A program made the position numbers and the translations under genes. The notes beneath the pieces are model-generated. The model did no database searches, was not told the DNA's origin, and saw only the letters and a program-made list of their open reading frames with translations. From an uncultured Bacilli bacterium (GTDB taxonomy: Bacteria > Bacillota_I > Bacilli_A > RF39 > UBA660): a stretch of 64,000 nt of DNA. Location: NCBI GenBank assembly GCA_947626095.1, contig CANQQV010000001.1:98009-162008 (forward strand). The letters run 5' to 3'. This document shows, one piece after another, positions 30,637 through 48,759 of this stretch (positions are counted from its first letter, which is position 1; each line of letters begins with the position of its first letter).

Positions 30637-30736
30637 TATACACCTCGCATATAGAATATCACAAAACAGGCAAAAAAACTATAAAAATACTTGCAGATTA
30701 GCAGTTTTATGCTATAATGAAATTGTTACATTTTTT

Positions 30737-30777
30737 AGGGGTATAGTTCAATGGTAGAACGTCGGTCTCCAAAACCG
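30737..30777 (+). pseudogene. 5' half of host tRNA-Trp(CCA), interrupted by the ICE (attL)
   Basis: AGGGGTATAGTTCAATGGTAGAACGTCGGTCTCCAAAACCG; no T-arm or acceptor 3' strand follows. Confidence 0.9.
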
Positions 30778-30860
30778 ACTGACTTGAAATGAATTGATGT
30801 TCTTTGAAAGTATTATAAATACTGGGAATAATGCCCATAAGAAAAAATAAAAAATAAAAA

Positions 30861-30882
30861 TTTGTGCCACGATTTGTGCCAA
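30861..30882. repeat. putative integrase arm-type sites (tandem TGTGCCA)
   Basis: TTTGTGCCACGATTTGTGCCAA; related copies at 63364-63384 (inverted), ~63475, ~63555, ~63639 and 63668-63688. Confidence 0.75.
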
Positions 30883-30928
30883 TAGCCATTTTTATGGTTA
30901 TATGCTATAATAATTCGTGGTTATATCT

Positions 30929-31002
30929 AGGGGATTAGTTTAATGGTAAAATAGGGGTCTCCAAAACCTTAGATAAGTGTTCGATTCACTTATCCCCTGC
31001 CA
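30929..31002 (+). tRNA. complete ICE-borne tRNA-Trp(CCA)
   Basis: AGGGGAT/ATCCCCT acceptor, CTCCAAA loop, AAGTG-TTCGATT-CACTT T-arm, CCA end; TGCTATAAT promoter at ~30903. Confidence 0.92.
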
Positions 31003-31135
31003 AAACAAGCGTTCGCTTTTTGCAGCGATTTATCATATATTATCTAGTAATCTTTACTAGATTTTTTTATTTTCAAAATGACTTGCAATAATACTTTTTT
31101 AGAGTTAACATCACAACATCAAAGGAGGATTTGTG

Positions 31136-31385
31136 ATGAGTAAAATAGTTGATTACAAAGTTAATTTAGGTTCATTGGTATTATATGAAACACTACTTGC
31201 ACTAGAAGGATCGTTTGAAGGAGGTTTACCCCTGTGCTGTTAGAAAAGAACTTAAAAGATTTATAAAAATTCTAATTGAAAACCTAGAACCTGAAGATTC
31301 TAAATTTAAAGACTATGATTTAGAAGATGTCGAATATTTAAAAAAATATTACTATGAAGATAACCCTAGCCCATTTATAAAATAA
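31136..31385 (+). pseudogene. small gene split by a +1 frameshift at CCCC (31229-31232)
   Basis: GGAGG RBS, ATG; stop at 31241; +1 frame open to 31385. Confidence 0.5.
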
Positions 31386-31513
31386 TAAATGTATATTTCT
31401 ACCCTTTTTTCTTATACTAAATATTGAAAGTGAAAAATATTTTCTAAAAACAATAGATTATATTTATGATTATGCTATAATAGGAATTAATTAAGAAATT
31501 TGGTGATGGTTAA

Positions 31514-31924
31514 ATGGATAAGTTTTCCATGTTAAAAGATAAACTAGAGAAATCAGGCACAGCACCCATTAGTTTCGATTGGATTTTAGATAACACCAAA
31601 GAAAAAAATAACAGCAATGGCTCGTTAAAAGAATTTTGTGATAAATACGAAGTCATAGAAAAAGACAATTGTTGCATGAGACTTTTAGTTGCTAAACAGA
31701 AGTTCCCTGTTAAGGATCTAAAAAGTAATAATAAACTTGATTACAATATGGAGCTATTTTATGTTTTGAAAGTAGTTATAAATAATGAAAGTGATATACT
31801 TGAAATAACTATTGATAAATATAATAATGAAAATGATTCTTATGCAGAATTTGATAAATGGTTAAGCATATTAAATGAAAAAAGTATGGATGAAATATTT
31901 GATTTATTATTATCTATGGTATAG
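31514..31924 (+). CDS. hypothetical ICE cargo protein
   Basis: TGCTATAAT promoter, GGTGA RBS, hairpin after stop. Confidence 0.7.
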   Translation: MDKFSMLKDKLEKSGTAPISFDWILDNTKEKNNSNGSLKEFCDKYEVIEKDNCCMRLLVAKQKFPVKDLKSNNKLDYNMELFYVLKVVINNESDILEITIDKYNNENDSYAEFDKWLSILNEKSMDEIFDLLLSMV

Positions 31925-31974
31925 CGATGAGCTATCTTTTTTTATGCAATCATATTTATAAAGGTCTTATTATC

Positions 31975-32021
31975 TGCTATAATATTTAATGAAACAAATA
32001 GTAATTTATATGAGCAAACAA
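31975..32021 (+). repeat. promoter plus AAATAGTAATTT site, copy 1 (empty)
   Basis: TGCTATAATATTTAATGAAACAAATAGTAATTT|ATATGAGCAAACAA. Confidence 0.75.
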
Positions 32022-32043
32022 TATATTAATTTTACTTTTTTTC

Positions 32044-32076
32044 TGATATAATATTTGGTGAAAAAAATAGTAATTT
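32044..32076 (+). repeat. promoter plus AAATAGTAATTT site, copy 2 (followed by a gene)
   Basis: TGATATAATATTTGGTGAAAAAAATAGTAATTT then GGAGGAGG. Confidence 0.75.
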
Positions 32077-32096
32077 GGAGGAGGAGAAAATACTTA

Positions 32097-32357
32097 ATGA
32101 AAATTGAAATCATAATTTTATCAATGATAGCTATTGTAGTTGTTTTATTAGCTTTATTTAAAATAATAAAATATATAAGAAGTAATTATTCTATTAAACC
32201 TATAAAAATAATTTTATATTTTGTTTTAATGTGTATAGATATCTATGTTTTAGGAGTGATAGACTTTATTGAACATAAACTTTATGGTGTTCTATTTGTA
32301 GTAATCAATGCTTGTTTAATAGCATTCATAAGATATGGCGGAAGAAAAAAACGATAA
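32097..32357 (+). CDS. small 3-TM membrane protein (cassette-like cargo)
   Basis: GGAGG RBS; followed by AAATTACAATTT at 32361-32372. Confidence 0.7.
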   Translation: MKIEIIILSMIAIVVVLLALFKIIKYIRSNYSIKPIKIILYFVLMCIDIYVLGVIDFIEHKLYGVLFVVINACLIAFIRYGGRKKR

Positions 32358-32586
32358 TACAAATTACAATTTGTATGAGTAAACAAAAAAATTATATGTT
32401 AGTCTTTCATATTTTAAAAAAATATAGTATAATTTTAATGTAGTCAAAAATAAATAAGACTACTATTACATATATCGATTTCGAGCAGTATTAGAAAAAG
32501 ATATAAATAAAATTTAAGCAGTATTTAATTAAATGTTTTATTTAGTTGGATACTGCTCTTTTTTTTGCTTTAAGGAGAGAGATGTT

Positions 32587-32865
32587 GTGATAGAAGAAAA
32601 AATTATTGATTGGGATACGGATTTTGGTTATGTAGAAAGTAATTTACAAAGACTTATGGATAAACAAGGAATTACTATCAGCACCATGAGTCATCTAACA
32701 AATATTAAATATGAAATTGTTAAAAAATATTACTATGGGGAAAACTATGCCTTTAATTGTGAAATATTAGCAAAATTTTGTTATATTTTAGATTGCAATA
32801 TCGCTGATATTATCTATTATGTACCATCGAAAGACTTTGTAAATAAAGGCGATTTTAATGATTAG
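32587..32865 (+). CDS. Cro/C1-type HTH regulator
   Basis: LQRLMDKQGIT...LAKFCYILDCNIADII. Confidence 0.8.
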   Translation: MIEEKIIDWDTDFGYVESNLQRLMDKQGITISTMSHLTNIKYEIVKKYYYGENYAFNCEILAKFCYILDCNIADIIYYVPSKDFVNKGDFND

Positions 32866-33078
32866 AAATTGAAAGTAAATTATAACTTATCATATTTTTG
32901 TTTTGCTATTTTAAAAATCAAGGGATAAAATGGTTATAATAAGTCAAAAGTATATGGAAGAAGGACTTATACATATTCCTAGTTCTAGGAATTGACCGAA
33001 AAAAATCGTAGTGATATTATAGGACACAAGTATTAAAAAACGAGAGATATCGTTCTTGTACTTGGGGATGTGGTTACT

Positions 33079-33183
33079 ATGGTTACACAAGAATTAAGAT
33101 CTTTATTTGAATTTTACGAAGGTGTCGAAGTTTCTTCTTCCCCTGTTTTTTATAGCAATGATGACTTAATGAAAGAGAGCTAA
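33079..33183 (+). CDS. possible 34-aa leader peptide
   Basis: GGGGATG upstream; stop lies inside a terminator-like hairpin. Confidence 0.35.
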   Translation: MVTQELRSLFEFYEGVEVSSSPVFYSNDDLMKES

Positions 33184-33237
33184 TAATGTTCAAGGCATTA
33201 CGCTCTCTTTTTCTATTGTTTTGATTTGGAGGGTACT

Positions 33238-33699
33238 ATGAAAAAAAGAAGAACTATGTTTTTAACGGATTTTATTGCTAATCAATATCCTATTGAAAAA
33301 TTTAAAGAAATTATATTTGTCACTTTGGATATTGTCGAGAATTTTCTTTTAACTTTGGAAAGTGGCTTTGACTATAATTCAGTATCTATTGCATCCTATG
33401 GCGAGAAGTATGGATCATCGCAACGAAATACCCATTCTAAAGTAGAAAGTATTTGTATCAAGAATATGCAAACACAAGAAAAAATGACAGAATTTTTAGA
33501 AAGTTATTTTGACGCTTATCGTTCATTAAATCAGGATGAAAAAAATATCTTTGATGCTACTTTTATTGATAAACTAACGGATCTTGAAATTATCGAAAAA
33601 TATAATACCCACTCTAAACAAATTAGGACTGTTAGAAAAAGTGCAATTGTTAGATTCTGCTTACGAGCAGGTTTAGATAAATTTGTAGATAAAATATAA
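33238..33699 (+). CDS. ArpU/RinA-like transcriptional activator
   Basis: SKVE motif plus C-terminal sigma-region-4-like HTH (SLNQDEK...RKSAIVRF). Confidence 0.65.
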   Translation: MKKRRTMFLTDFIANQYPIEKFKEIIFVTLDIVENFLLTLESGFDYNSVSIASYGEKYGSSQRNTHSKVESICIKNMQTQEKMTEFLESYFDAYRSLNQDEKNIFDATFIDKLTDLEIIEKYNTHSKQIRTVRKSAIVRFCLRAGLDKFVDKI

Positions 33700-33793
33700 C
33701 AAAACGAGTTTATAGGGATCTCGTTATCAAAAAACTAAATTATAAAAATAAGGAGGTGAGATATTAGAAACTTGTAATCCATACTACTCTACA

Positions 33794-34573
33794 ATGTTAG
33801 GTAATTTATATAAAGGTGATTGTTTGGAAGTTATGGATTATCTTATTGAGCAAGGTGTGAAAGTTGATGCAATAATCACTGATCCACCTTATGCAGTAAC
33901 TGGTTTTGTTTGGGATCAGATAATTCCCCTTGATGCCATGTGGGATAAACTTACAAAGTTAATTAAGGATGATGGTGCTATTGTTCTTTTTGGGAATGAA
34001 CCATTTAGTAGTAATCTTCGCTTGAGTAATCCTAAACTATATCGTTATGATTGGAAATGGATTAAAACTCAAGTAACAGGATTTCAAAATGCTAAATGTC
34101 AACCACTGCGATGTTATGAAGATATTATGGTGTTTTCTAAAGCAGGAGCTGTAACTTCTGCAAAACCACCCATGAAATATTTTCCTCAAGGTGTTATTCC
34201 TGTAAATGTAAAAGTGACTACAACTCCTGTTAACTATTTAAGGGATAATAAAAAGTTCGATAAAATCAGTTATACTCAAGAAGAAGCCAACTACCCTAGA
34301 AATGTTATACAATTTGCTAGGGAAACGGAATTGTACCATCCAACACAAAAACCTATTGCTCTTATGGAGTATATAATTTCTACCTATACAAAACGAGGTG
34401 ATTTAGTTTTGGATTTTACAAGTGGCAGTGGTTCTACCCTGTTGGCATGTGAGGTTCTTAATCGTAAATGGATTGGGATCGAAATTACAGACAAATATTG
34501 TGAAGTCATAAAAAAAAGAATTCAAAAAGGAATTCAAATGAAAATACAATTTGAGTACGATTGTGATAATTAA
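33794..34573 (+). CDS. orphan N4/N6 DNA methyltransferase, beta class (frame open upstream to ATA 33761)
   Basis: TDPPY, HPTQKP, DFTSGSGS. Confidence 0.9.
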   Translation: MLGNLYKGDCLEVMDYLIEQGVKVDAIITDPPYAVTGFVWDQIIPLDAMWDKLTKLIKDDGAIVLFGNEPFSSNLRLSNPKLYRYDWKWIKTQVTGFQNAKCQPLRCYEDIMVFSKAGAVTSAKPPMKYFPQGVIPVNVKVTTTPVNYLRDNKKFDKISYTQEEANYPRNVIQFARETELYHPTQKPIALMEYIISTYTKRGDLVLDFTSGSGSTLLACEVLNRKWIGIEITDKYCEVIKKRIQKGIQMKIQFEYDCDN

Positions 34574-34590
34574 ATATAGGAGGGATTTTA

Positions 34591-34692
34591 ATAATTAAAC
34601 AAAAAAATAGTCGAAATAACAAGGCACTCGTTTCATTCGACTACTATGATTATAACATTAAAACTGAAAAATTAACAGGAGGTATTGCTTAA
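34591..34692 (+). CDS. 33-aa ORF with ATA start, coupled to next gene
   Basis: GGAGG, 7 nt, ATA; TAATG overlap with 34692. Confidence 0.4.
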   Translation: MIKQKNSRNNKALVSFDYYDYNIKTEKLTGGIA

Positions 34693-34931
34693 TGGAAAGC
34701 ATACTTCAAGATGTACTTAAACTTATAAATGATGCTATGGGATTTTTAAGGTTGTTCGTTATTGGTGGAACAGCTTTTTTTGTTGCAAAAGATTTTGCTC
34801 TTAAAATGGCATCTAGTGATGATAATCAAAAAGCAAGTTATGATCGTAAGATAAAAACAACAATAATCGCAGGTGTTTCGGCACTTGTAACTACTCAATT
34901 TGTAACATGGATTCTAGGATACTTTCAATAA
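34692..34931 (+). CDS. TrbC/VirB2 pilin-like membrane protein
   Basis: 79 aa, two hydrophobic segments, position in transfer operon. Confidence 0.6.
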   Translation: MESILQDVLKLINDAMGFLRLFVIGGTAFFVAKDFALKMASSDDNQKASYDRKIKTTIIAGVSALVTTQFVTWILGYFQ

Positions 34932-35137
34932 TGAAACAAAAGGATTTTAATAAAACAATAAATGAAGTTTTAGATGAAGGTAAAATTGAAAATAAAGATA
35001 TTAAGAATATTGATACTTTAAGATATATTCTTGAAGATAAGAAAAATAAACATCAAAAAAATATTGAATTGAGATGTAATTTGGTAGATCTAATCAATGA
35101 TTTAGACTTCCTGAAACAATATTTAGAAAATAAGTGA
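34931..35137 (+). CDS. hypothetical protein
   Basis: TAATG coupling to upstream gene. Confidence 0.55.
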   Translation: MKQKDFNKTINEVLDEGKIENKDIKNIDTLRYILEDKKNKHQKNIELRCNLVDLINDLDFLKQYLENK

Positions 35138-35190
35138 TTTGACATATTTTTAAATTAGAGCTAACATCACTTTCAAAGAGGTGGTTCTTA

Positions 35191-35829
35191 ATGAAAAAAG
35201 TTTTAATATCTATTTCAATAATACTTTTAGTTTCTATTTCCATAGTTTCTCTTTGGTTATTCACAGGCAAAGAGAAATTAAAAGAAAAAGATAACGATAA
35301 TAATTCTAGTGCAATTCAAGAAAACATAAACGAAGATCTAAATGAAAATGATAGTACCAACTATACTAATAAACCTGATGAGGTCTTAAATGGCGATGCT
35401 ATAACTAATAACAAAGAAACTGAACATCAAAGTTCTAATGATTCAAATAATACTATAAAAAATGATAATTCAAATAATAATGTTGCAAGTAAAAAAGAAG
35501 AAAACAAACAAAGTTCACAAAATAAGCCAAATTCAAATACAACACAATCAAATTCAAAACCTAGTAATAATACCCAACAAGAAAAACCTAAAGTAGAAGA
35601 ACAACCTAAAAGTTGTACTCCTAAAAAGTTTGATATGTCTTTCGTTCGTGCCGATTTTTCTTCTTTCGCAGAATGTACTGCTATGGGTGATAAATATAAA
35701 GCAAACGGATATGGTTATTATTGTGATAGTTATCAAGATGATTGCTTTGATACTTATTATATGTTGACTTTGTATGAGCCAAATACAGGAAAATTGTTTG
35801 ACTATCATACAATTTCGATACCTGAATAG
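35191..35829 (+). CDS. membrane-anchored protein with Asn/Ser-rich linker and Cys-containing C-domain
   Basis: N-terminal TM; TTGACA-17-TAACAT promoter. Confidence 0.7.
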   Translation: MKKVLISISIILLVSISIVSLWLFTGKEKLKEKDNDNNSSAIQENINEDLNENDSTNYTNKPDEVLNGDAITNNKETEHQSSNDSNNTIKNDNSNNNVASKKEENKQSSQNKPNSNTTQSNSKPSNNTQQEKPKVEEQPKSCTPKKFDMSFVRADFSSFAECTAMGDKYKANGYGYYCDSYQDDCFDTYYMLTLYEPNTGKLFDYHTISIPE

Positions 35830-35865
35830 GTATCTTTTTTTTGCAACAATTTAAGGAGGGATATA

Positions 35866-38595
35866 ATGAAAAGTAAATTAAAATATTTATTATTTTTATT
35901 GATGTTTGTTGCTGTTTGCCCTAGTTTAACTGCTCATGCAGAAACTTATAAGGCAGAATTCAACGACAAATATAAATGGATTCCTAATGTTTATGTAAGT
36001 AAGAAAGAGTCTAATGGTCGTGTTCATTATCAACAACTAACAATGATTGCTCGTAAAGGTGATAATCAATTTGTTTATTGTATTGAACCAGGTACTCCAT
36101 TAGATCCTAACGAAACTTATACAGGTCAAGATTACGATCAATCTTATGTCGCAAACATGACCCCTGAACAATGGAAAAGAATTCAATTGTTAGCATATTA
36201 TGGTTATGGTTATAGTGATAGTGAAGTAAATCACGATGATATCAAATGGTATTCAGTAACTCAATTTATGATTTGGAAGACTGTACCACATGGTATGGAT
36301 ATCTATTTTACTGATACCTTAAACGGAAATAAAATTACAAGATATACCGAAGAAATGGAAGAAATGGAAAGATTACTTTCTAACCATTATAAAGTTCCTG
36401 ATTTTGGAGCTACAAGTTTTGATATGGTTGTAGGAAATACATTAAAATTAACTGATTCAAATAATGTAATTTCTAAATATGCTGTACCAAGTAATGATCT
36501 TATCACTGCAAGTAAAAATGGTAATGAATTACATTTAACTGCTAAAGGTGTTGGTGATGCAACTTTAAAATTAACTAAAAAGGATTTAAAATACTCTCAT
36601 CCTACTATTGTTTATGTTAAACCTAATACTCAAGATTTAGTTCAAGTAGGAAGTTATGATCCTGTTGATACAACTATAAATCTTCATATTGTTGGTGGTA
36701 AAATTGCTATCAATAAAGTTGATTATGATACAGGTTTATCAGAGCCAAGAGGCATGGCTACTCTTGAAGGAGCTATCTATGGGGTATATTTAGAAGATGG
36801 TACTTATGTAACTCAAATGGTAACTGATAAAAATGGTCATGCACAAAGTGATTATTTACCAAGTTTAGGTAGATTTTATGTTCAAGAAATCAGCCCAAGT
36901 AAAGGTTATGAACTTGATACAAATAAATATTACTTTGACTTAACTAATGATAATTTAGATCCTGTTCTTCCTGTTCAAGAAAAAGTTATCGAACGAGAAT
37001 ATCAAATAACAAAAGTAGTCGCTACTGATAAAACACAAATTATGACTCCTGAACCTAATGTTCAATTTGGCATCTATGATCATAATAATAAACTTGTTAA
37101 AACTTTAACTACTGATGCTGAAGGAAAAATTACATTTACTCTCCCTTATGGTAAATATACTTTAAGACAATTAACGACTCCAAGTGGCTTTGAAAAGATA
37201 AAAGATTTTAATTTTGAAATTACGGAGTCAGGAGATACTATTAACAAGGTGTTCTCTAATGCAGAAATAACAGCAAGAATTAAAGTTGTTAAAATAGATC
37301 AAGATGGTAATGTTGTCACTAAAGCAGGTATTAAGTTTAAGATAAAGGATCTTTCAACAGGTAAATATGTATGTCAAACTGTTGCTTACCCTAATCAAAA
37401 AACTTACTGCGAATTTGAGACTGATGAAAATGGTATGCTTATAACTCCATACCCTTTAAATTCAGGTGACTATCAACTTGAAGAAGTAGACCAACTTATT
37501 GATGGATATTTATGGAACTCTGAACCATTAAAGTTCTCTATTAATGAAAACTCTGATATTAAAAGTACCAATGACTTTGATGCCATTATGGAAATTAGAT
37601 TTACTAATCAAGAAGTAAAAGGTAAAATTGAAATCCAAAAAACTGGCGAACAAGTCGTAATTGAGGATGGCAAATTCACTTATGTTGAAGTACCACTACC
37701 TAATATTACTTTCGGTTTATATGATGCTGAAGGTAGCTTGATTGATACTTATACTACTGATGAACAAGGTAGAATTGTTATCGAAGATCTTAAATTAGGT
37801 AATTATGTTTTAAAAGAACTTAAAACTGATGATAAATATGTTCTTGATGAAAAAGAATATAACATCGAGTTAAAGTATAAGGATCAATACACAGCTGTTG
37901 TAACTGAAACCTTTACTTTAAAAAATTACTTAAAGAAAGGTACTTTAGATTTTTCTAAAAAGGATCTAACAACTGGTAAAGAAATTCCTAATGTTAAATT
38001 AGAGGTTTATACTGAAAACGATGAGCTTATTTATAGTGGCATTACTGATGAAAATGGTAAAATCACTATCGAAGATTTATTCGTCGGTAAATTCTATATT
38101 GTTGAAACTGAACCTGCTACTGGTTATAAATTAAGTGATGAAAAAGTATATTTTGAAGTTAAGGAAAACGGCGAAATAGTAAAAGCCGAAATGACAAACG
38201 AAAAAATTACAGGATCACTTGAATTTACAAAAGAAGATCTTTCTACTGGTGAGGCACTTCCTAATACTTTAATCGAGGTATATAATGCCGAAACTGATGA
38301 GTTAGTATTTTCTGGTCGTACCGATGAAAACGGAAAGATTATTATTGAAAACTTGGAATATGGTAAATACTATATTTTAGAGAAGGAAGCTCCCGAAGGA
38401 TATAAATTAAATCCTGATAGAATGTATTTTGAAATTCTAGAGGACGGACAAGTTATTAAATCAGTAATGAAAGATGAAATTGTTGATGTTCCTAATACTG
38501 GTATCAATGATTATCATATTATTGATATTATAGGTCTTGTCTTTATCATTGGTGGTATTGGTTTCCTTATTTATGAAAAAACAAAGAAAAAATAA
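35866..38595 (+). CDS. thioester-domain (TED) adhesin with SpaA/CnaB repeats and VPNTG sorting signal
   Basis: Signal peptide; YCIEPG and TQFMIW; TTDxxG and ExxAPxGY repeats; VPNTG-TM-basic tail. Confidence 0.85.
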   Translation: MKSKLKYLLFLLMFVAVCPSLTAHAETYKAEFNDKYKWIPNVYVSKKESNGRVHYQQLTMIARKGDNQFVYCIEPGTPLDPNETYTGQDYDQSYVANMTPEQWKRIQLLAYYGYGYSDSEVNHDDIKWYSVTQFMIWKTVPHGMDIYFTDTLNGNKITRYTEEMEEMERLLSNHYKVPDFGATSFDMVVGNTLKLTDSNNVISKYAVPSNDLITASKNGNELHLTAKGVGDATLKLTKKDLKYSHPTIVYVKPNTQDLVQVGSYDPVDTTINLHIVGGKIAINKVDYDTGLSEPRGMATLEGAIYGVYLEDGTYVTQMVTDKNGHAQSDYLPSLGRFYVQEISPSKGYELDTNKYYFDLTNDNLDPVLPVQEKVIEREYQITKVVATDKTQIMTPEPNVQFGIYDHNNKLVKTLTTDAEGKITFTLPYGKYTLRQLTTPSGFEKIKDFNFEITESGDTINKVFSNAEITARIKVVKIDQDGNVVTKAGIKFKIKDLSTGKYVCQTVAYPNQKTYCEFETDENGMLITPYPLNSGDYQLEEVDQLIDGYLWNSEPLKFSINENSDIKSTNDFDAIMEIRFTNQEVKGKIEIQKTGEQVVIEDGKFTYVEVPLPNITFGLYDAEGSLIDTYTTDEQGRIVIEDLKLGNYVLKELKTDDKYVLDEKEYNIELKYKDQYTAVVTETFTLKNYLKKGTLDFSKKDLTTGKEIPNVKLEVYTENDELIYSGITDENGKITIEDLFVGKFYIVETEPATGYKLSDEKVYFEVKENGEIVKAEMTNEKITGSLEFTKEDLSTGEALPNTLIEVYNAETDELVFSGRTDENGKIIIENLEYGKYYILEKEAPEGYKLNPDRMYFEILEDGQVIKSVMKDEIVDVPNTGINDYHIIDIIGLVFIIGGIGFLIYEKTKKK

Positions 38596-39214
38596 AAATA
38601 ATGGTAAGAGCCGATTCATAGTAATTGGCTCTTTATTTATTTTGTTTGGTGTTTCTATTATTGGCTATCATATATATTCTAATTACAAGTTAGATAAAAT
38701 AGCAGACGATAATATTGAGCAATTTTTTGAAGAAGAAAAAATTATCGATGATCAGCCACAGGAAGAACAATTTGTTGAAGTAGAAAAAAAAGAAGTTAGT
38801 AAAACTAATTATGATTACATTGCTGTAATCGAAATACCTAAAATAAATGTTAAAAGAGGTTTGTCACAAGATAAATATTACAATAATGTTAATAGGAATA
38901 TTGAGATTCTTAAAGGATCTACTATGCCTGATGTTTCACAAGGTAATTTTATGGTTGCTGGTCATTCAGGTACAGCTCGAACTTCCTATTTTAGAAATTT
39001 AGATAAGTTAGTAATTGGGGATCTTACTTATATATATTACAATGGCATTAAATATACTTATAAAGTTAATAATATTTATGATATTGAAAAAACTGGTAAA
39101 GCAACTATTCGTAGGGATTTAAATAAAACTACTCTTACGATGATTACTTGCCGACATAATACCAACAAGCAGATTGTTGTTATTTCCGAGTTAGTTAATA
39201 AAGAAACTTATTAA
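38573..39214 (+). CDS. sortase
   Basis: AGHSG, LTMITC, N-terminal TM. Confidence 0.9.
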   Translation: MKKQRKNKNNGKSRFIVIGSLFILFGVSIIGYHIYSNYKLDKIADDNIEQFFEEEKIIDDQPQEEQFVEVEKKEVSKTNYDYIAVIEIPKINVKRGLSQDKYYNNVNRNIEILKGSTMPDVSQGNFMVAGHSGTARTSYFRNLDKLVIGDLTYIYYNGIKYTYKVNNIYDIEKTGKATIRRDLNKTTLTMITCRHNTNKQIVVISELVNKETY

Positions 39215-39227
39215 GGAGGAGTGATGA

Positions 39228-40583
39228 ATACAAATATTAGCAGTTAATCAAGTCGGACAAAAATGGTATCTTGATATATTAAGGAATGCTTTATGGAGTA
39301 TCGCTAAAGGTATTCTATGGTTTCTTGATGGCTTCTTTGATATCATTGATAAGATTTGGCGATATAAATTTTTTGATAATGATTATGTTAATAAGATTTT
39401 TGGTGGAGCTTTAATAATCGCCTGTTCATGGCTGATTCTTAAAACGATTATTGAATTGATTATGAATTATATAGTCAAAAACGATGGTCGTGGCAGTCCA
39501 CTAACTATTTATCGTGGTGTAATTCTTGCTATTGTAATGATGTTCTTAATCAATCCATTATTTCAATTTGGATATGATTTTTCGACTAAAACAACTGATG
39601 CTGTTATTTCAGTATCAGGTATGAGTGGATCTAGTAGTGCTGAAGGTACAATATCAAAAGCATTAATTAGGGCTATGTCGTATGATGATGAAATGAAAGA
39701 AAGCGATAAAAATTATTTAATAAACAATTGGAAGACCATAGATATAAATTCTACTGAAGGTGGAGTTGTTGGTATTGGTGATGTTTATAAATATTCGCTT
39801 AACTTTTTTATGCTGATAGTTCTCTCAATTGTAACTATCTTTTTATTATTCTTTGTGGCGATTCAGATGGCTAAACGAGTCATGGAAATCGCTCTGATGA
39901 AGATAGTCGGACCTTTCTGCTGTACGAGTCTGACTAACAATCAATCTAAAGCATTTGAAACATGGACTAAAAGTACAATGGGATATTTCCTTATAACTAT
40001 TGTTCAATTCATTTGTATAGGATTATTACTTAATATGTTTGGATCTGCTATTCAAGATAATGGAACTCTAACAGGAATATTCTTAATTATTGGTGCTTTA
40101 TTATTCGTAATAAGTACGCCTACATTAATTAGTTCTCTATTAGGTCAACAATCAGGTATGATGTCTGCCTTTGGCGATATGCAATCATTACTTGCAATTG
40201 GTAGTGGTGTTAATGCAGGGCTTTCTCTTGCTAAAGCAGGATCTATGTCTGCTCTTGGTATGGGAGCTAATGTTGTTAAAGGTGGAGCTAATAAAATATC
40301 AGGAGGCATTTCAAATATGTTTGGTGGACATGGTGGTGGTTCGTTAAATAAAGAACAAATGGCTAATGTTCAAGAAAAATTAGGACAACATAATAGTTAT
40401 GGTGCTAATCAATTAGTAAAACAATATACCCAAGAAAATATGAAGAAAAAACCTACTACTTCATTTACTAATTCTAATCCATATAAAAATCCATTCAGTA
40501 TGCAATATAACCCAATTAGAAATCAGTATATGAGCAATTCAGGACTTGAGGCAAATAGTAATTTTGATAGGAAGTGGTATTAA
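39228..40583 (+). CDS. VirB6/TrbL-like conjugation membrane protein (ATA start proposed)
   Basis: Multi-TM with Gly-rich tail; frame open 76 codons upstream of ORF-track start to ATA 8 nt after GGAGG. Confidence 0.75.
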   Translation: MQILAVNQVGQKWYLDILRNALWSIAKGILWFLDGFFDIIDKIWRYKFFDNDYVNKIFGGALIIACSWLILKTIIELIMNYIVKNDGRGSPLTIYRGVILAIVMMFLINPLFQFGYDFSTKTTDAVISVSGMSGSSSAEGTISKALIRAMSYDDEMKESDKNYLINNWKTIDINSTEGGVVGIGDVYKYSLNFFMLIVLSIVTIFLLFFVAIQMAKRVMEIALMKIVGPFCCTSLTNNQSKAFETWTKSTMGYFLITIVQFICIGLLLNMFGSAIQDNGTLTGIFLIIGALLFVISTPTLISSLLGQQSGMMSAFGDMQSLLAIGSGVNAGLSLAKAGSMSALGMGANVVKGGANKISGGISNMFGGHGGGSLNKEQMANVQEKLGQHNSYGANQLVKQYTQENMKKKPTTSFTNSNPYKNPFSMQYNPIRNQYMSNSGLEANSNFDRKWY

Positions 40584-40855
40584 TGTATTTGATTCCAAAA
40601 AATATAAAAACAAAAAAAGAAATATTTAAAGGATTTGGTATATTCGAGTGTATTGCAATTGCAGTATCACTTGGCATTGGGTATTTTTGTTCATTATTGA
40701 TCTCTCAATTTAAAATTAAAATGATTTTATTTTGTGTTCCACCATTACTTATGTTTTTATTATTACTTCCCTTACCTAACGGAAGTACAGCTTTAACTAT
40801 TTTAAGAAAGTTTTTTATTTATCAAAAACATCAAAAATGTTTTAAAGTGAAATAA
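40583..40855 (+). CDS. PrgI/VirB3-like membrane protein
   Basis: YLIPKNIKTKKEIFKGFG plus two TMs. Confidence 0.65.
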   Translation: MYLIPKNIKTKKEIFKGFGIFECIAIAVSLGIGYFCSLLISQFKIKMILFCVPPLLMFLLLLPLPNGSTALTILRKFFIYQKHQKCFKVK

Positions 40856-40967
40856 TTATAATTTACTTATAGCCATTTTATACTTTTTGATTATCAATCC
40901 TAGTTAAAATGGGAATTTCATGATATAATTAATTTGTTAGTTTATGTCTTAAAGGATGTGATATAAA

Positions 40968-42884
40968 ATGGCTAAAAAAGAAGTTAACACAGATTTATGG
41001 GTTAATGATATTTTAAAAGAAGCTAATATTAAATTGACAGCACAAGGATGCGATATAATTGAAATCGATAATGCATTAAAAACGGCATCAAAAAACGGAA
41101 CTGGAAATGTTGGGTTTCCTGAATATTGTGGAGTCGTAAAAGATTTTGTAATTGTTATTGAAGATAAACCAACAATCGATAAACAAGTTAAATTTGATGA
41201 AAATGGCATTTTGGATATGGATGTAAAGTCTATAAAGGATTATGCTCTAAATGGTGCTTATTTTTATGCAAAACATATTTTAGAAAATACAAATTATAAA
41301 AAAGCAATTGCATTCGGTATTAGTGGTAATGAAAAAAATCATATTATTAAACCTATATATCTTGATGGTAGAGAATATTATATGGACTTACCTGAAGTTG
41401 AAAGTTTTATTCAGTTCAATAGTGAAAATATAGATGAATACTATATTAGGGAAATTTTAAAAGAGGATACTGATGAAGAAAAAACAACTGCTGAAATTAT
41501 CAATGATGCTAAAGAACTGCACGAATACTTGAGAAACTATGGTAATTTAAAAGATACTGATAAACCATTAGTAGTAAGTGGTATTCTTCTTGCATTAAGA
41601 GAAATGGAATTCAAAAATTTTTCAATAGATCAATTAAATGGTGATAGTGAAAAAACTGACGGATTAAAAATTTATAATGCAATAGAGGATAATTTAAAAA
41701 GATCTCAAGTATCTCCTGAAACTAAAAAGGATAAATTATTATCGCAATTTGCTTTAATAAAAGACACCGTTGTACTAAACGAAATTAATCCCATATTAGG
41801 GAAAACACCTTTAAAATATTATACGGAATATTTATATCAAAAACTATATAAAACTATTAGATATAATAAAACAGCTGAAGATTATCTTGGAAGATTCTAT
41901 GGCGAATTTATGAGTTATAGTGGTGGCGATGGTCAAAGTTTAGGAATAGTTTTAACTCCAAAGCATATTTGTTCATTATTTTGTGATTTAATAGATTTAA
42001 ATGAAAATGATATCGTTCTTGATCCTTGTTGTGGTACAGCTGGATTTTTAGTATCTGCAATGCATCATATGACATCTAAAACTAGCAATCCAGATTTAAT
42101 AAGAAAAATTAAAAGAGAACAGCTACATGGCTTTGAATTACAACCTTATATGTTTACTATTGCTACAACTAATATGATATTGCGTGGTGATGGTAAAAGT
42201 AATTTAATTTGTGATGATTTTTTAGCACAAGATCCTAATAAAATACAATTGAAAGGTGCTACTGTTGGAATGATGAACCCACCTTACTCTATGGGTAAAG
42301 TTAGTCCTGAAAAGTGTGAGTTAAGTTTTGTAGAGCATTTATTAGATTCTCTTACAACTGATGCTCGTTGTATAGTTATTGTTCCACAAAGTGCAATGAC
42401 TGGTAAAAATGGATATGAAAAAGCAATCAAAAAGAATATTTATAAAAAGCATACTTTAGAAGGGGTAATTACTCTTAATACTGATACATTTCACGGTGTT
42501 GGAACAAATCCTTGTATTGCAATATTTACTGCTCATGTTCCTCATAATAAAAATAAAATTTGTAAATTTATAAATTTTGAGAATGATGGATTTGTTGTTC
42601 AAAAACATAGAGGATTGGTTGAAACAGAAATTGCTAAAGATAAAAAACAACATTTGCTTGATGTTTGGAATGATAGAATTGAGTCATCAACTAAATTTTG
42701 TGTTAAAACTACTGTGGAAGATGATGATGAGTGGTTACATTCTTTTTACTATTTTAATGATGAAATACCTACTGAGGATGACTTTGAAAAAACAATGGCT
42801 GACTATTTAACCTTTGAATTTTCAATGGTAATGCAAAATAGAGATTATCTATTTAAAGGTGGCGATCATAATGAACTTGAATGA
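40968..42884 (+). CDS. BcgI-like type IIB RM endonuclease-methyltransferase subunit
   Basis: N-terminal PE...EDK nuclease motif; DPCCGTAGF and NPPY; 638 aa. Confidence 0.85.
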   Translation: MAKKEVNTDLWVNDILKEANIKLTAQGCDIIEIDNALKTASKNGTGNVGFPEYCGVVKDFVIVIEDKPTIDKQVKFDENGILDMDVKSIKDYALNGAYFYAKHILENTNYKKAIAFGISGNEKNHIIKPIYLDGREYYMDLPEVESFIQFNSENIDEYYIREILKEDTDEEKTTAEIINDAKELHEYLRNYGNLKDTDKPLVVSGILLALREMEFKNFSIDQLNGDSEKTDGLKIYNAIEDNLKRSQVSPETKKDKLLSQFALIKDTVVLNEINPILGKTPLKYYTEYLYQKLYKTIRYNKTAEDYLGRFYGEFMSYSGGDGQSLGIVLTPKHICSLFCDLIDLNENDIVLDPCCGTAGFLVSAMHHMTSKTSNPDLIRKIKREQLHGFELQPYMFTIATTNMILRGDGKSNLICDDFLAQDPNKIQLKGATVGMMNPPYSMGKVSPEKCELSFVEHLLDSLTTDARCIVIVPQSAMTGKNGYEKAIKKNIYKKHTLEGVITLNTDTFHGVGTNPCIAIFTAHVPHNKNKICKFINFENDGFVVQKHRGLVETEIAKDKKQHLLDVWNDRIESSTKFCVKTTVEDDDEWLHSFYYFNDEIPTEDDFEKTMADYLTFEFSMVMQNRDYLFKGGDHNELE

Positions 42885-43941
42885 TAAAGAATGGAGACCA
42901 TTTCCATTAGATAGTTTAGAAAAAGATGGAATTTTTAATATTTTTTCTACATCTAGTGGTATTGATAAAAACAAACTCGAAAATTTAGAAGGCAATATAC
43001 CATATATTACTAGAACTGACAAAAACAACGGAATAGAAAACTTTATAGGTAAACAACTAAATTCAAAATGGAATATCGATAAAGGAAATGTAATAACAAT
43101 TGGATTAGATACTCAAACAGTTTTTTATCAACCAAATTATTTTTATACAGGGCAAAATATACAAATATTAAGTAATGACAATTTAAATTACTATACTGCA
43201 ATGTTTATTATTCCTTTACTGAAAATTCTTTTAAAAAAATTTAGTTGGGGTGGAAATGGAGCAACACTAACAAGATTAAAAAAAAGTAAAATAATGTTAC
43301 CTATAAATGATAATGGGACTCCTGATTATATATTTATGGAAACATATACAAAAGAAAAAGAAAAAAATATGTTAAAAAAATATGTTGAATATATAAAAGT
43401 TCAAGATAAGTTCGATATGAATTCTATATCTCGTATAGTTTCATGGAAAGAATTTAAAATTAGTGATATATTCAATGAAATATCTAGGGGTAAAAGATTA
43501 AAAAAAGATAATCATATAGTTGGTAATATACCCTATGTATCTTCAACAATGCTAAACAATGGAGTTGATGGATTTATTGGTAACTCTAACGGAAGATCAT
43601 TTAATAATTGTATAACAATTGCAAATAGTGGTTCAGTTGGTTATAGTTTTTATCATCCTTATAATTTTATTGGTAGTGATCATGTAACAGCATTGAAAAA
43701 TAAAAGTTATGATAAATATATTTATTTATATATATCTACTATGTTAAAAACTTTAAGTGAAAAATATAGTTTTAATAGAGAGATAAATGATTATAGAATA
43801 AATAAGGAAAAAGTATTGTTGCCAATTAATCCAAAAACAAATGAAATAGATTTCGAATATATGGAACAACATATGAAAAAAGTAATGATTAATCAAATTA
43901 AAAAATACTTGAATTATGTTGAAAATAGAATTTATGGTTAG
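42871..43941 (+). CDS. RM specificity subunit (two TRDs)
   Basis: Two repeats GNIPY...LP...FMExY; overlaps the MTase stop. Confidence 0.85.
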   Translation: MNLNDKEWRPFPLDSLEKDGIFNIFSTSSGIDKNKLENLEGNIPYITRTDKNNGIENFIGKQLNSKWNIDKGNVITIGLDTQTVFYQPNYFYTGQNIQILSNDNLNYYTAMFIIPLLKILLKKFSWGGNGATLTRLKKSKIMLPINDNGTPDYIFMETYTKEKEKNMLKKYVEYIKVQDKFDMNSISRIVSWKEFKISDIFNEISRGKRLKKDNHIVGNIPYVSSTMLNNGVDGFIGNSNGRSFNNCITIANSGSVGYSFYHPYNFIGSDHVTALKNKSYDKYIYLYISTMLKTLSEKYSFNREINDYRINKEKVLLPINPKTNEIDFEYMEQHMKKVMINQIKKYLNYVENRIYG

Positions 43942-43972
43942 CACTCGCTAATCTTTTTTTATGGGAGGAATT

Positions 43973-44104
43973 ATGAAATATGTTATTATAGGGCTAATAG
44001 GAATATTAGTTCTTTTTATTTACTCTGCTTGTGTTGTATCAAGTAGATGTTCTCGTGAAGAAGAAAAATGGAGGGATGAAAATGAGCATTCTACAAGAAT
44101 ATGA
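43973..44104 (+). CDS. 43-aa single-TM protein (not in ORF track)
   Basis: GGAGG RBS, MKYVIIGLIGILVLFIYSAC... Confidence 0.6.
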   Translation: MKYVIIGLIGILVLFIYSACVVSSRCSREEEKWRDENEHSTRI

Positions 44105-44594
44105 ACAAATTAGAAAAGAAATGGGTTCTACTCGTTTCGATGCTATTGGTGATTATCTCAATGAAATCAATAAGAATAGCAATACTGAATTGTTTTTATC
44201 TGATGTCTTATATAAGCAACAAGAATATGCCAAGTTTGATGCTTGGTTTTTAGATCAAATAGCACCTTTTAAATTATTTGAACAAGACAATTCTATTGCT
44301 CTAATTTTAGATGAAGAAGATTTTAAAAGCGATGCTTTTGTTAATCGTGAAGTAGATCAAATATACTCTAATGGTTATGGATGGGATCAAGTTATAAAAT
44401 CATATATCAATGATCATTTTCCTAATATGTTAGATAATGTATATTTCGATTCGGAGCTATCAATGTTTTGTGTTTATTTTAATGATAAAAGAGACTTTGA
44501 CGAATTATCTTATAACTTTATTAAGTTATATAAAGATGATGTTGCCTTAAAAGATTATATTGATAATATGAAAATTATTGATATCAATATATAA
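44082..44594 (+). CDS. protein with Imm51-like C-terminal domain
   Basis: NGYGW...FDSELSMFCVY. Confidence 0.55.
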   Translation: MSILQEYEQIRKEMGSTRFDAIGDYLNEINKNSNTELFLSDVLYKQQEYAKFDAWFLDQIAPFKLFEQDNSIALILDEEDFKSDAFVNREVDQIYSNGYGWDQVIKSYINDHFPNMLDNVYFDSELSMFCVYFNDKRDFDELSYNFIKLYKDDVALKDYIDNMKIIDINI

Positions 44595-44606
44595 GGGGGA
44601 TGGGAT

Positions 44607-44963
44607 ATAGAAAAAAGGAAAAAATTAAAATATAATAATCAATTATGGTTTGTTAATGTTTCTTCTTATAATAACGGAAGAATGAAACTTACCATTTCAA
44701 ATAGAAAAGAAATTAAAGAAATTACTATTGATTTAGATGATGCCTACTTAAAAGATGGGCATATTTTTTTAAATCCTGAAGTCAAAGATAATGGTATTCT
44801 TAAAGTTCTTAAAAAAAGTCGTATTATTAGAGAGATAGATGGTACTCTTTGTTATGATTATACAATGATTCCTATTGCTCTTACTAATAATGGAATACTT
44901 AAAACTTATGATTATTCAGGTGTTTTAAATTATCTTGATTTTATAAATAATAAGGAGGACTGA
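44607..44963 (+). CDS. hypothetical protein (ATA start proposed)
   Basis: AAGGGGG, 7 nt, ATA; in frame with 44682 ORF. Confidence 0.6.
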   Translation: MEKRKKLKYNNQLWFVNVSSYNNGRMKLTISNRKEIKEITIDLDDAYLKDGHIFLNPEVKDNGILKVLKKSRIIREIDGTLCYDYTMIPIALTNNGILKTYDYSGVLNYLDFINNKED

Positions 44964-44966
44964 TCT

Positions 44967-45209
44967 ATAAAGAATGATAGATTAAAATTATATAATTCTA
45001 CTCTAACGATAAGGTTAGATAAAAAAGAAAAAGATACTTTAAAGCGAAATGCTTATAAAAATAAAATGACAATGTCTAATTATATTAGATTACTTATTTC
45101 TATGGATAATAGATTATGTGAAATTCAAAAGAATAAGGATAAAAATAATAAGTATGCATCTGAAATCTCTAAAATTATGATAAATATTGGGAGGGATTTA
45201 GATGTTTAA
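44967..45209 (+). CDS. ribbon-helix-helix protein with ATA start (not in ORF track)
   Basis: GGAGG, 8 nt, ATA; TLTIRLDKKEKDTLKRNAYKNKMTMSNYIR. Confidence 0.7.
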   Translation: MKNDRLKLYNSTLTIRLDKKEKDTLKRNAYKNKMTMSNYIRLLISMDNRLCEIQKNKDKNNKYASEISKIMINIGRDLDV

Positions 45210-47562
45210 GAAAAAAACAAAATTACCTAAAAATATAGCAGACTTTATTCCCTTTCAGGATGTTTGGAATAACCTAGTATATCTTGATAATAATAAAATC
45301 GTTGCAGGTATTAAAATAGGTTCTATTAACTTACATTTATTATTTGATGAAGAACAAAAAATTAAAGTTGCTGAACTTAAAAAGGTTTTAAATTCTATTG
45401 ATTACCCTGTTAAAATATTTAGTGTCGATAAACCTATCAATTTAGATGATAACTTAAATATTTTAGGATCTAAAATTAAATCTGAAAACAATAAACATAA
45501 AATTCAGTTATTGGAGGAAGATTATAATTTTGTACAGGATCTAAATAGTAAGAAATGGGTAGTTAATCGTGAATTTTATTTAATTGTTGAAGAAGATTCG
45601 GCAAACGAACAATTACTTAATCAAAAAGTTAATGATCTTATTCAAGAATTTATTTCTATTGGATTACATAGTGAACGAGTATCTTCAGAGGAATGGCGAG
45701 ATCTATTATATGTTATTTTAAACCCTGTAACATCGCTCGATGTCTTTAAAAAAGATGCCACAGGTATAACTCGTTCATTTAAAGAGAAAATCGCTCCAAA
45801 TGGCTTAAAAATCAATGAAAAAGATATAATTATGGGTGATGCTTATGTTAGTGTCGTAACTTTAAGAACCTACCCATCTATCGTTGGTGTTGGATGGCTT
45901 GGAGCTGTTGCTAATGTTAATCATACTCGTATGGTTATGACTATTAGTCCAATGGATGCACTTGAAATAAGTAATACTTTGAAAAAAAGTATGTCAGAGG
46001 TTAAATCAAAACTAATGAATACCAATAATTATAATGATGAAGTTGTTTTAAATAATCAGTTAGATGATTATGTTCAACTTGTTAATCGTATTGATCGTGA
46101 ACATGAAAAGTTTTCATTATTGACGGTCAATTTTTTATGTTATGGGGATTCAAAAGAAAATATGGAACGAGCTAAAAAAGAACTTAAAACCACTCTTTCT
46201 GCCTATGGTATGGGTGGTACTGATTTAATGTTCGAACAAGAACGATCATTAAAAATGTGTTTGCCTACCATGTATCGTGATTTAGAAAAAGAATTTGGAT
46301 TGCCTATACCGATGATGACTGTGGCATCTTCCTTTCCTTTCATCTTTCAAACTTTGCAAGATGATGGCGATGCTATGATGCTTGGTACTGATTCACTTGG
46401 TAGTTTATTATTCTTTGACTTATGGAAAAGGACAAGTAAAAGAAATAACTCTAATGCTGTAATTATTGGTAAGTCGGGATCTGGTAAATCTACTTTAATT
46501 AAAAAACTGATTCGTGGTACTTGGTGTCGTGGTTCTAAAGTTATAGTAATAGATCCTGAACGAGAATATAAGGACTTATGTGAAAATATTAACGGAACAT
46601 GGATTGATTGTGGAACTGGATCACAAGGAATTATAAATCCTTTGGAGGTTCGTAGAGGTAATGATGACTCTGATGAAGATAAGAAAATTGCTAACAATGA
46701 TTTATCAAGGCATTTTCAAACTTTTAGAACCTTTATTAAGTATTATTTACAAGATTTAAGTGCTTATGAATTAACTAAAATCGAAGAAATACTTATTGAA
46801 GTTTATAAGGACAAAGGTATTGATTTTGATACTGATTTATCTACTTTAACGAGTGAAGATTACCCAACTATGCAAGACTTATATAATAAAGTTGTTGAAA
46901 CTTTAAAGGTTGCTAAAGCCAATAAAGAAGCTCGTAATGTTGTTGAGTCTTTGGAAAAGATTTCTTCTATGTTAAAGAAATCTACTATTGGAGCTGATGC
47001 TCGTATCTTTAATGGGCATTCAAGTATAAATGTAGATAATTCATCAGACTTTATTGTTTTAGATATTCATAGTTTAGTTGATTCAGATGAAACTATTTTA
47101 AGAACTCAATTCTTTAATATTTTATCTTGGTGTTGGAACGAGATAAGTCGTGATAGAAACGAACAAGTAATTCTTGTTTGTGATGAGGCACATTTACTTA
47201 TCGATCCTAACAATAAGGATGGTATTGATTTCTTAAAAAGAACTGCTAAAAGAATAAGAAAATATAACGGATCTCTTTGGATAATTAGTCAAAACTTAAT
47301 CGATTTTACTTCACAAGGAATTGAAAGATTCGGTCAAGTAATTATTGATAATAGTTCCTACATTGTGGTAATGGCTCAAGGTCAAAAAGAAATTGAGGCA
47401 GTTCAAAAAATGATGAATTTATCGGAGTCCGAGATTCAATTCCTTACAACTGCATCTCGAGGTCAAGGTTTATTTGTCATAAGTCAGGACACAAGATTAC
47501 CTATTCAAATTCATTTAAGGGAGGAAGAAAAAGAATTATTTGGTAATGCAGGTGGTAGATAA
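45202..47562 (+). CDS. virB4: VirB4-like T4SS ATPase
   Basis: GKSGSGKS, IDPEREY, DEAH, RIRKYNG. Confidence 0.92.
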   Translation: MFKKKTKLPKNIADFIPFQDVWNNLVYLDNNKIVAGIKIGSINLHLLFDEEQKIKVAELKKVLNSIDYPVKIFSVDKPINLDDNLNILGSKIKSENNKHKIQLLEEDYNFVQDLNSKKWVVNREFYLIVEEDSANEQLLNQKVNDLIQEFISIGLHSERVSSEEWRDLLYVILNPVTSLDVFKKDATGITRSFKEKIAPNGLKINEKDIIMGDAYVSVVTLRTYPSIVGVGWLGAVANVNHTRMVMTISPMDALEISNTLKKSMSEVKSKLMNTNNYNDEVVLNNQLDDYVQLVNRIDREHEKFSLLTVNFLCYGDSKENMERAKKELKTTLSAYGMGGTDLMFEQERSLKMCLPTMYRDLEKEFGLPIPMMTVASSFPFIFQTLQDDGDAMMLGTDSLGSLLFFDLWKRTSKRNNSNAVIIGKSGSGKSTLIKKLIRGTWCRGSKVIVIDPEREYKDLCENINGTWIDCGTGSQGIINPLEVRRGNDDSDEDKKIANNDLSRHFQTFRTFIKYYLQDLSAYELTKIEEILIEVYKDKGIDFDTDLSTLTSEDYPTMQDLYNKVVETLKVAKANKEARNVVESLEKISSMLKKSTIGADARIFNGHSSINVDNSSDFIVLDIHSLVDSDETILRTQFFNILSWCWNEISRDRNEQVILVCDEAHLLIDPNNKDGIDFLKRTAKRIRKYNGSLWIISQNLIDFTSQGIERFGQVIIDNSSYIVVMAQGQKEIEAVQKMMNLSESEIQFLTTASRGQGLFVISQDTRLPIQIHLREEEKELFGNAGGR

Positions 47563-48200: not shown

Positions 48201-48414
48201 TTTAATAGAAAGTTATGCTTTACAAGTTGCTAGTGTTCTTCATAAAACTGGTAAAGGTTCATTTACAATGGATGAGATTTGTGAAAAAGTAAAAGAACTT
48301 GTTAAGGAAGAAGAACTTGTAGAACCTGTTGTAATTGAGGTTAAACAACTTCTAATTAACAAGTATAATTTTGAAATTATAAATACTAATATTAAGTTTG
48401 ATATTGAAATATAA
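48184..48414 (+). CDS. hypothetical protein
   Basis: Overlaps upstream stop; ends FDIEI. Confidence 0.6.
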   Translation: MESQSDLIESYALQVASVLHKTGKGSFTMDEICEKVKELVKEEELVEPVVIEVKQLLINKYNFEIINTNIKFDIEI

Positions 48415-48600
48415 AGGTTCTTCTTTTGTTTCAGTATTAAGTTTTTAAGTTATAAAAAAGGTTCTTTCAATACCCTTTTAGGTAGTTATAATGTTATAAC
48501 ATTTGTTAGACTTAAAGCCCTATTTTTAAAGATTTCGGTATAAATGCTGTTAGACAAAAGACAGACAAATAGAAAAATGTATGACAAAGCAAGACTTTGG

Positions 48601-48670: not shown

Positions 48671-48759
48671 ATGGTCTTAAAATTGTGTCCTATTTCTCGT
48701 GAATTTCAAAATAACTGATGTCCTTGTTTTGTGGCATCATTTTATATGGAGGTGATATT

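Follow-up and report, generated by a model that had tools for sequence, protein, structure and literature searches.

A split host tRNA-Trp gene and a complete carried tRNA-Trp at a predicted integrative conjugative element of gut Bacilli

Introduction

The closest described systems are temperate phages. For tRNA-dependent lysogeny in actinobacteriophages, which has been reported for Fionnbharth and for further phages, including those of Cluster K4 and Cluster L (Guerrero-Bustamante and Hatfull, mBio 2024, PMC10865867), the need for the phage tRNA is reported to be proven by genetics, and the targets comprise tRNA-Lys(TTT) and others. Its discussion expects the phenomenon to occur elsewhere and cites prophage Lj965 in this regard.

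Here we describe a related arrangement in a 64-kb stretch of DNA, referred to below as the window, that forms the end of contig C1 in a draft genome (G000) of 1.6 Mb, 34 contigs and ~28% G+C. A preliminary description of this DNA treated the strategy of breaking a host tRNA gene and supplying a replacement as unprecedented, a view that does not survive its publication for phages in 2024 (PMC10865867). The principle is already known from phages, and the case of the integrative conjugative element (ICE) examined here is a variant of it with a wider family behind it.

Results

A host tRNA-Trp gene in two pieces

In the genome to which the window belongs, the host tRNA-Trp gene is cut in its anticodon loop, and the resulting pieces lie ~33 kb apart (Table 1). 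This split, along with an 11-bp overlap between the pieces, had been reported in the preliminary description, all of whose coordinates for it hold. The core, CTCCAAAACCG, is all that the two pieces have in common. The 5′ piece is identical to the 5′ portion of the intact tRNA-Trp genes in two relatives (G008 and G019), and the 3′ piece shows 100% identity to the corresponding half of intact genes in 13 genomes of the genus. Upstream of the 5′ half stands an extended -10 element, TGCTATAAT, at positions 30710-18.

No tRNA was called by ARAGORN at attL or attR in the window. The stump at attL scores 34.6 bits in Rfam, and its 3′ part, where the T arm and the 3′ strand of the acceptor stem would lie, is unpaired. 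Neither junction of the ICE rebuilds a tRNA, so that the host gene is left broken, as had been claimed; because the sequence 3′ of the attL core is without a T arm or an acceptor strand, the element is not a classical tRNA-restoring island.

The preliminary description had suggested a tRNA call on the rejoined attB as a check. Rejoining the halves in silico yields a tRNA-Trp that ARAGORN accepts as valid and that is the same as the intact G008 gene at 74/74 positions. The U27-C43 mismatch to which attention had been drawn is indeed present upon rejoining, but since the rejoined sequence equals an intact gene throughout, the mismatch is native and does not represent damage. Position 27-43 is likewise unpaired in 8 of 13 aligned tRNA-Trp sequences.

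Table 1. Positions in the window of the split tRNA-Trp gene, the att sites and the annotated features of the element.
Feature	Position	Strand	Remarks
Host tRNA-Trp promoter	30691..30718	+	TTGCAG, 16 nt, TGCTATAAT; read directly
Host tRNA-Trp 5′ half, orphaned; attL	30737..30777	+	First 41 nt; tRNA positions 1-42
Common core CTCCAAAACCG	30767..30777 (attL), 63809-19 (attR)	+	Anticodon loop and 4 nt of the 3′ stem strand
Integrative conjugative element	30778..63808	+	33,031 bp; bounds from attL/attR/attB comparison
Two direct ATTTGTGCCA repeats, putative arm-type integrase sites (P′ arm)	30860..30881	+	TGTGCCA motif shared with P arm
Promoter-like site of ICE tRNA	30883..30911	+	TAGCCA-17-TATAAT, TG-extended
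Complete ICE tRNA-Trp(CCA)	30929..31002	+	ARAGORN; Rfam 64.4 bits; CCA encoded, A1-U72, G73
Terminator-like hairpin 3′ of ICE tRNA	31013..31028	+	
SpaA/thioester-domain surface adhesin and sortase	35866..39214	+	
TrbL/VirB6-like channel protein	39456..40583	+	PF19597
Type I restriction-modification M and S subunits (cargo)	40968..43941	+	
VirB4/TraC-like conjugation ATPase	45202..47562	+	PF19044, PF12846
M23 peptidase, cell-wall hydrolase of transfer apparatus	47562..48200	+	Domain match
NikA-like accessory protein and MobL-family relaxase	48933..50787	+	PF21983, PF18555
DDE transposase (insertion sequence in ICE)	52889..54391	-	Domain match
VirD4/TraG-type coupling protein	54785..56389	+	PF02534, 1.3e-62
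ArdC-like anti-restriction protein	59978..61012	+	Domain match
70-aa ORF abutting integrase gene	61526..61738	+	Candidate excisionase by position
Tyrosine integrase, 526 aa	61741..63321	+	PF00589 (3.9e-23), PF14659
P arm: six TGTGCCA/TGGCACA repeats, both orientations, putative arm-type sites	63371..63690	+	
Host tRNA-Trp 3′ half, displaced	63809..63852	+	Ends in CCA; initial 11 nt are the attR core

A predicted conjugative element between the pieces

The gene content of the intervening DNA was assigned from Pfam matches, with ORFs of at least 70 aa scanned. A transfer gene set and an integrase were recovered in this way, in agreement with the earlier designation of the element as an ICE, and judged by its genes, which include those for a relaxase, a coupling protein, a VirB4-type ATPase and an integrase, as well as by the att sites at its flanks, the element is an ICE. 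Among the Pfam matches of the element there are no phage structural genes, and searches of phage and plasmid collections returned nothing close, the best phage integrase being ~30% identical. Aligned to PDB 3nkh and to the Tn1549 integrase (6emy), the integrase presents the R, HxxR and Y motifs as RREE, LRHS and IYTHS. The small ORF that abuts its gene has no match in Pfam or PHROG, and no excisionase family was recognised.

Among the ICE ORFs of at least 70 aa that were scanned, no R subunit accompanies the type I M and S subunits. Genes for the immunity proteins Imm51, WapI-like and Imm48 are scattered in the element (44031-44594, 50826-51224 and 56407-56874), and no toxin domain was recognised among the scanned ORFs. 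The insertion sequence separates the relaxase region from the gene for the coupling protein. With respect to the ends, an inverted near-copy of the core (AGCGATTTTGGAG) occurs within the P arm at 63509-63521, and direct ACTGACTT repeats at 30778-30785 and 63796-63803 flank the core in the deduced attP.

Two further observations concern the rest of the window. Positions 63906-64000 hold a promoter-like repeat (TTGACA ... TATAAT) that is also found at the ends or starts of contigs C30, C17 and C18, and which probably represents sequence upstream of an operon that is repeated, for example that of rRNA. A tmRNA gene at 2565-2927 scores 132 bits in Rfam; the tag peptide that ARAGORN assigns to it (VHIYRVYYYIA) is odd, and this tag call may be wrong.

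A second, complete tRNA-Trp inside the left end

Just past the repeats of the P′ arm, the element holds, 151 bp inside attL, a complete tRNA-Trp(CCA) that is preceded by a promoter-like site. The preliminary description had placed such a gene about 150 bp inside attL with a promoter of its own, and it had noted that the stems around the loop differ from those of the host gene; both statements are confirmed, the anticodon stems being GGGGT/ACCTT in the ICE copy and TCGGT/ACCGC in the host. The carried gene scores 92.5 bits with a tRNA-Trp covariance model of our own. Of its 74 positions, 52 agree with the host gene, and most of the changes are compensated in stems; 10 of the 11 core bases are retained, as are 13 contiguous bases of the target (GGTCTCCAAAACC). 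Also kept are A1-U72, G73 and the CCA anticodon, which we take to be the identity elements for TrpRS. The cloverleaf is conserved in an alignment of 13 tRNA-Trp sequences from hosts and elements, with 96% of cells paired and compensatory changes in 13 of 21 pairs; its score is reached by none of 500 shuffles, and slid controls are 41-58% paired. We infer that the ICE tRNA would be expressed, charged by the host TrpRS and needed by integrants to live.

The same junctions occur at the same site in G010, a genome of another species of the genus. Between G010 and G000, the left end of the element is identical at 538 of 549 positions (98%), with the tRNA-Trp within it 100% identical, and the right ends agree at 64 of 66 positions, whereas the host flank is identical at only 536 of 650 (82%). 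The G010 assembly is without the interior of the ICE, so that this comparison confirms the ends of the element there. The contrast between the left end and the flank argues that the tRNA moves with the ICE. Host-specific differences between the two genomes start directly on both sides of the core, which places the crossover inside the 11-bp core and shows that one mobile element inserted twice independently. The attL junction is also spanned, next to another upstream flank, by a metagenome contig from a different study, one of three contigs from runs of other studies that cross the junction or start at it; metagenome contig ends at position 30777 correspond to intact tRNA-Trp genes of other organisms. 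By these comparisons, the complete tRNA-Trp belongs to mobile DNA. Because the same junctions are present in an independent genome and in metagenome contigs, the arrangement is also not a product of chance.

These data bear on the possibility that the split is an artefact of assembling or binning a metagenome-derived genome. The G000 assembly (91% complete) carries 7.9% contamination, and contig C1 ends 148 bp past attR, in a repeat, both of which would be compatible with such an error. Nevertheless, the two junctions and the entire ICE lie on one contig, and the junctions recur in an independently assembled genome and in contigs from the runs of other studies. We regard an artefact as scarcely credible.

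Another explanation is that the tRNA gene at 30929 is chromosomal, being the second member of a tandem pair, and that the ICE starts to its right with nothing having been replaced. Consistent with this, the -10 block of the host tRNA-Trp is 93% alike to the block before the ICE tRNA. Furthermore, in a sister species (G042) the ICE allele is chromosomal, at a locus that other species also conserve; its initial 39 nt can be read there, all identical, before the contig ends in the anticodon loop. The allele is also present in complete form on a metagenome contig, where the sequence upstream of it is the same as that in G042. A tandem pair is nonetheless hard to reconcile with the 98% identity between G000 and G010 over positions 30778-31325, which include the tRNA, as compared with 82% in the flank, or with the arm-type repeats that stand between the core and the tRNA. 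Relatives with an empty site, a comparison that the preliminary description had also suggested, have an intact gene (G008, G019 and others), and in them this is one tRNA-Trp with no second copy adjoining. We therefore regard a chromosomal tandem pair as very improbable, and favor a tRNA gene that is part of the element.

The surroundings of the locus differ within the genus. In G000 and G010 a cardiolipin-synthase-like gene adjoins tRNA-Trp (window positions 29128-30736), and in at least six other species (loci L021, L036 and L037 were compared) tRNA-Trp adjoins a homologue of G000 C30:7580-8038. By this comparison, the locus has been rearranged in the lineage of G000 and G010.

Sole copies and extra copies

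The gene at 30929-31002 is the sole tRNA-Trp called by ARAGORN in the window and in the whole 34-contig assembly. With our covariance model, G000 and G010 each yield one match of at least 70 bits, which is the ICE copy, and exactly one full-length match of at least 78 bits is present in 16 of 27 genomes of the genus. Extra tRNA-Trp genes do occur in relatives, with three in G007 and two in G021. In G001, a tRNA-Cys(GCA) and a tRNA-Trp(CCA) adjoin one another in phage-like surroundings (C3:135029-135188, L107). The carried copy is thus not the sole copy in every host.

The G001 pair has the same two isotypes as the host genes that ICEs split in that genome, and the pair may be a coincidence or a third source of replacement tRNAs. 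A BLAST-based candidate, in which the ICE copies were the sole tRNA-Cys and tRNA-Trp genes of G001, was rejected when the covariance search found this pair. Elsewhere in G001 (C4:52822-52891, L076) there is a 5′-truncated piece of tRNA-Trp that extends from the D loop as far as CCA and is perhaps the displaced piece of an older insertion.

Copy number is central to a third explanation, namely that the carried tRNA-Trp is dispensable cargo, that another intact tRNA-Trp gene went unassembled, and that the role of the carried gene is, for example, resistance to anticodon nucleases or tRNA supply. The G000 assembly contains just 22 tRNA genes, which implies that tRNA clusters are unassembled and that the single copy is a property established for the draft. 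The two or three tRNA-Trp genes of some relatives (G001, G007 and G021) are in keeping with dispensability, and the discussion section of the actinobacteriophage report raises anti-defence roles for phage tRNAs (PMC10865867). On the other hand, neither ARAGORN nor the covariance model finds a second tRNA-Trp in G000 or G010, most of the surveyed genus genomes have the one full-length match described above, and unrelated cargo leaves unexplained why carried and split isotypes agree in all nine elements described below, over four amino-acid isotypes. We consider the cargo explanation unlikely. The isotype agreement makes complementation of the broken host gene the natural reading, and to this extent the earlier proposal of complementation in cis stands; its second part, that the copy has been recoded, does not, as described next.

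Natural alleles on chromosomes and elements

That the carried copy was recoded to evade the integrase is rejected as a general rule, since the copy keeps 10 of the 11 core bases and is a natural allele, that of G042. In another element (G123), the carried copy and the target have 14 contiguous bases in common. Recoding against the integrase may apply to the copy carried in G199, where the 31-39 loop-closing pair is flipped, a change seen only there.

At one chromosomal locus in the genus, three clearly different tRNA-Trp alleles are found (L028 in G042, L058 in G022 and L031 in G011, compared with L021, L036 and L037), and two of these three are the alleles carried by elements. In addition to the match between G042 and the window ICE, the chromosomal tRNA-Trp of G022 and of G011 is of the allele type borne by the G001 element. 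No half-sites that would mark the scar of an ICE were found within ~4 kb of the element-type chromosomal gene in G022. The tRNAs on these ICEs therefore resemble natural alleles that are exchanged between chromosomes and elements, with either direction of exchange being compatible with the sequences.

The same layout at other tRNA genes

Relatives of the window integrase (E values of 1e-30 or better) are encoded in 15 of 301 genomes of the order. In five of these 15, the integrase gene is followed by a tRNA-Trp 3′ half that begins at the anticodon loop, and two of the five, G199 and G123 from other genera, have the element in its entirety on a single contig. Both show the order 5′ half, arm repeats, promoter, a complete tRNA-Trp of the element's own, 24-35 kb that encode MobL and a coupling protein, the integrase and the 3′ half. 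In total, tRNA-Trp is split in this manner by four further elements, which come from three genera, and those in G001, G199 and G123 carry their own complete copy 140-220 bp inside attL. The G001 element (28 kb, with a 512-aa integrase and a 12-bp core) has its tRNA-Trp at 140 bp. A coupling protein is encoded inside all three of these elements, and a MobL relaxase inside those of G199 and G123; in the G001 tRNA-Trp element no MobL was found.

The layout extends to tRNA-Cys (G001), tRNA-Leu(CAA) (G043 and G044) and tRNA-Arg(CCT) (contig C2 of G000 itself). The tRNA-Cys ICE of G001 (C1:383362-419722, L059-L063) is 36 kb long, and its transfer genes are 70-76% identical to those of the window ICE; a full tRNA-Cys lies between ardC and int in reverse orientation. 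At its attL is a degenerate sequence resembling a tRNA 3′ half (32.6 bits in Rfam), with an intact acceptor strand and the T-loop TGCGATT, which is possibly the fossil of a classical restoring attP. Given this remnant, the border between restoring and replacing elements is not sharp. Three further loci have a split tRNA-Cys. The tRNA-Leu(CAA) elements are 14-18 kb long, and no coupling protein was found inside them. In G000, a 9.7-kb island (C2:150226-160044, L109) splits the host tRNA-Arg(CCT) at the anticodon loop and carries, 75 bp inside attL, a complete tRNA-Arg(CCT) that is the only one in the assembly, together with genes for two N6/N4 DNA methylases, a TGT-like protein and an intact 386-aa integrase.

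All nine split genes rejoin to a valid tRNA whose isotype is that of the carried copy, and ARAGORN calls a tRNA at the attL of none of the nine loci. The integrases of the Trp, Cys, Leu(CAA) and Arg(CCT) elements are ~30-35% identical to one another. In a tree of 18 integrase rows, from which L052 (no ORF found) and G025 (217 aa, partial) were left out, those beside tRNA-Trp fall in three clades, with moderate support for the deep forks.

Discussion

We propose that the window ICE represents a disrupt-and-replace integration module on a conjugative element, a reading to which we assign a probability of roughly 0.8. According to this proposal, the tyrosine integrase would recombine the 11-bp core of attP with the anticodon loop and 3′ stem strand of the host tRNA-Trp. 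Since attP has no tRNA 3′ half, integration would leave two dead halves 33 kb apart. In the circular form, the carried tRNA-Trp gene, with its own promoter and terminator, would be separated from the core by ~150 bp and from the int start by ~2 kb, and for as long as the ICE is integrated this gene would serve as the sole UGG decoder. Precise excision would restore the host tRNA-Trp exactly. The benefit of such a module is likely to be host range, because a complete tRNA can work in a host with any acceptor and T arms, whereas a hybrid formed at attL must pair strands of host and element.

Several consequences would follow. A mechanism shown in 2024 in actinobacteriophages would extend to conjugative elements and to uncultured gut Bacilli, and it would be modular, with one layout serving Trp, Cys, Leu(CAA) and Arg(CCT) in combination with distant integrases. 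If the only UGG decoder is on the ICE, the element could be lost just by precise excision, which amounts to a built-in stabiliser. Programs that find islands by seeking a restored tRNA and a displaced fragment would miss such elements or misplace their borders, and tRNA counts in such genomes would be assigned to the wrong replicon. A cassette of int, attP and tRNA (~2.3 kb) could become a self-selecting integration tool.

A broader generalisation is more doubtful, and we put it forward tentatively, with the odds somewhat against it. Cassettes of int, attP and tRNA on ICEs and small islands might constitute a general mode of landing in anticodon loops among gut Bacilli, at Trp and Cys, which by anticodon have no substitute decoder, and elsewhere. 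They might also drive horizontal turnover of tRNA genes between chromosome and element in both directions, such that the only tRNA-Trp of a host can be derived from mobile DNA. The survey of copy number covered tRNA-Trp.

In the full-text literature, with subscription journals outside the scope of the search, we found no ICE that uses a disrupt-and-replace strategy. The window element nevertheless shares components with several known systems. Its integrase has the same catalytic fold and motifs as Tn916/Tn1549-type and staphylococcal integrases (PDB 6emy and 3nkh), from which it differs in its low similarity (E-values of 1e-12 to 1e-6) and in a C-terminal extension of ~120 aa. ICEMh1 and ICEPmu1, which integrate in tRNA-Leu (PMC6861422) and exemplify the classical elements that target anticodon loops, are like the window ICE in being conjugative, in using a tyrosine recombinase and in having the anticodon loop of the target as their direct repeat. 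These two elements, however, carry the rest of the tRNA, such that one junction is a full-length functional gene, whereas neither junction of the window ICE is.

Temperate phages provide the closer parallels. Prophage Lj965 of Lactobacillus johnsonii, as cited in PMC10865867, interrupts a tRNA gene and carries a full cognate, and the same is true of the vTRX32-1-like temperate phages of Rhizobium (PMC8631192). The tRNA-Leu carried by the latter is reported to be without the 12-bp target motif, in contrast to the window ICE copy with its largely retained core. Compared with the actinobacteriophages of PMC10865867, the present case differs in concerning a conjugative element of gut Bacilli that is known from its sequence, in having tRNA-Trp as its target and in carrying its tRNA directly beside attP. 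Like those phages, it combines a tyrosine integrase and arm-type sites with an attB in a tRNA gene and a core of ~10 bp, rebuilds no functional tRNA, and brings with it a tRNA whose isotype matches that of the gene that it interrupts.
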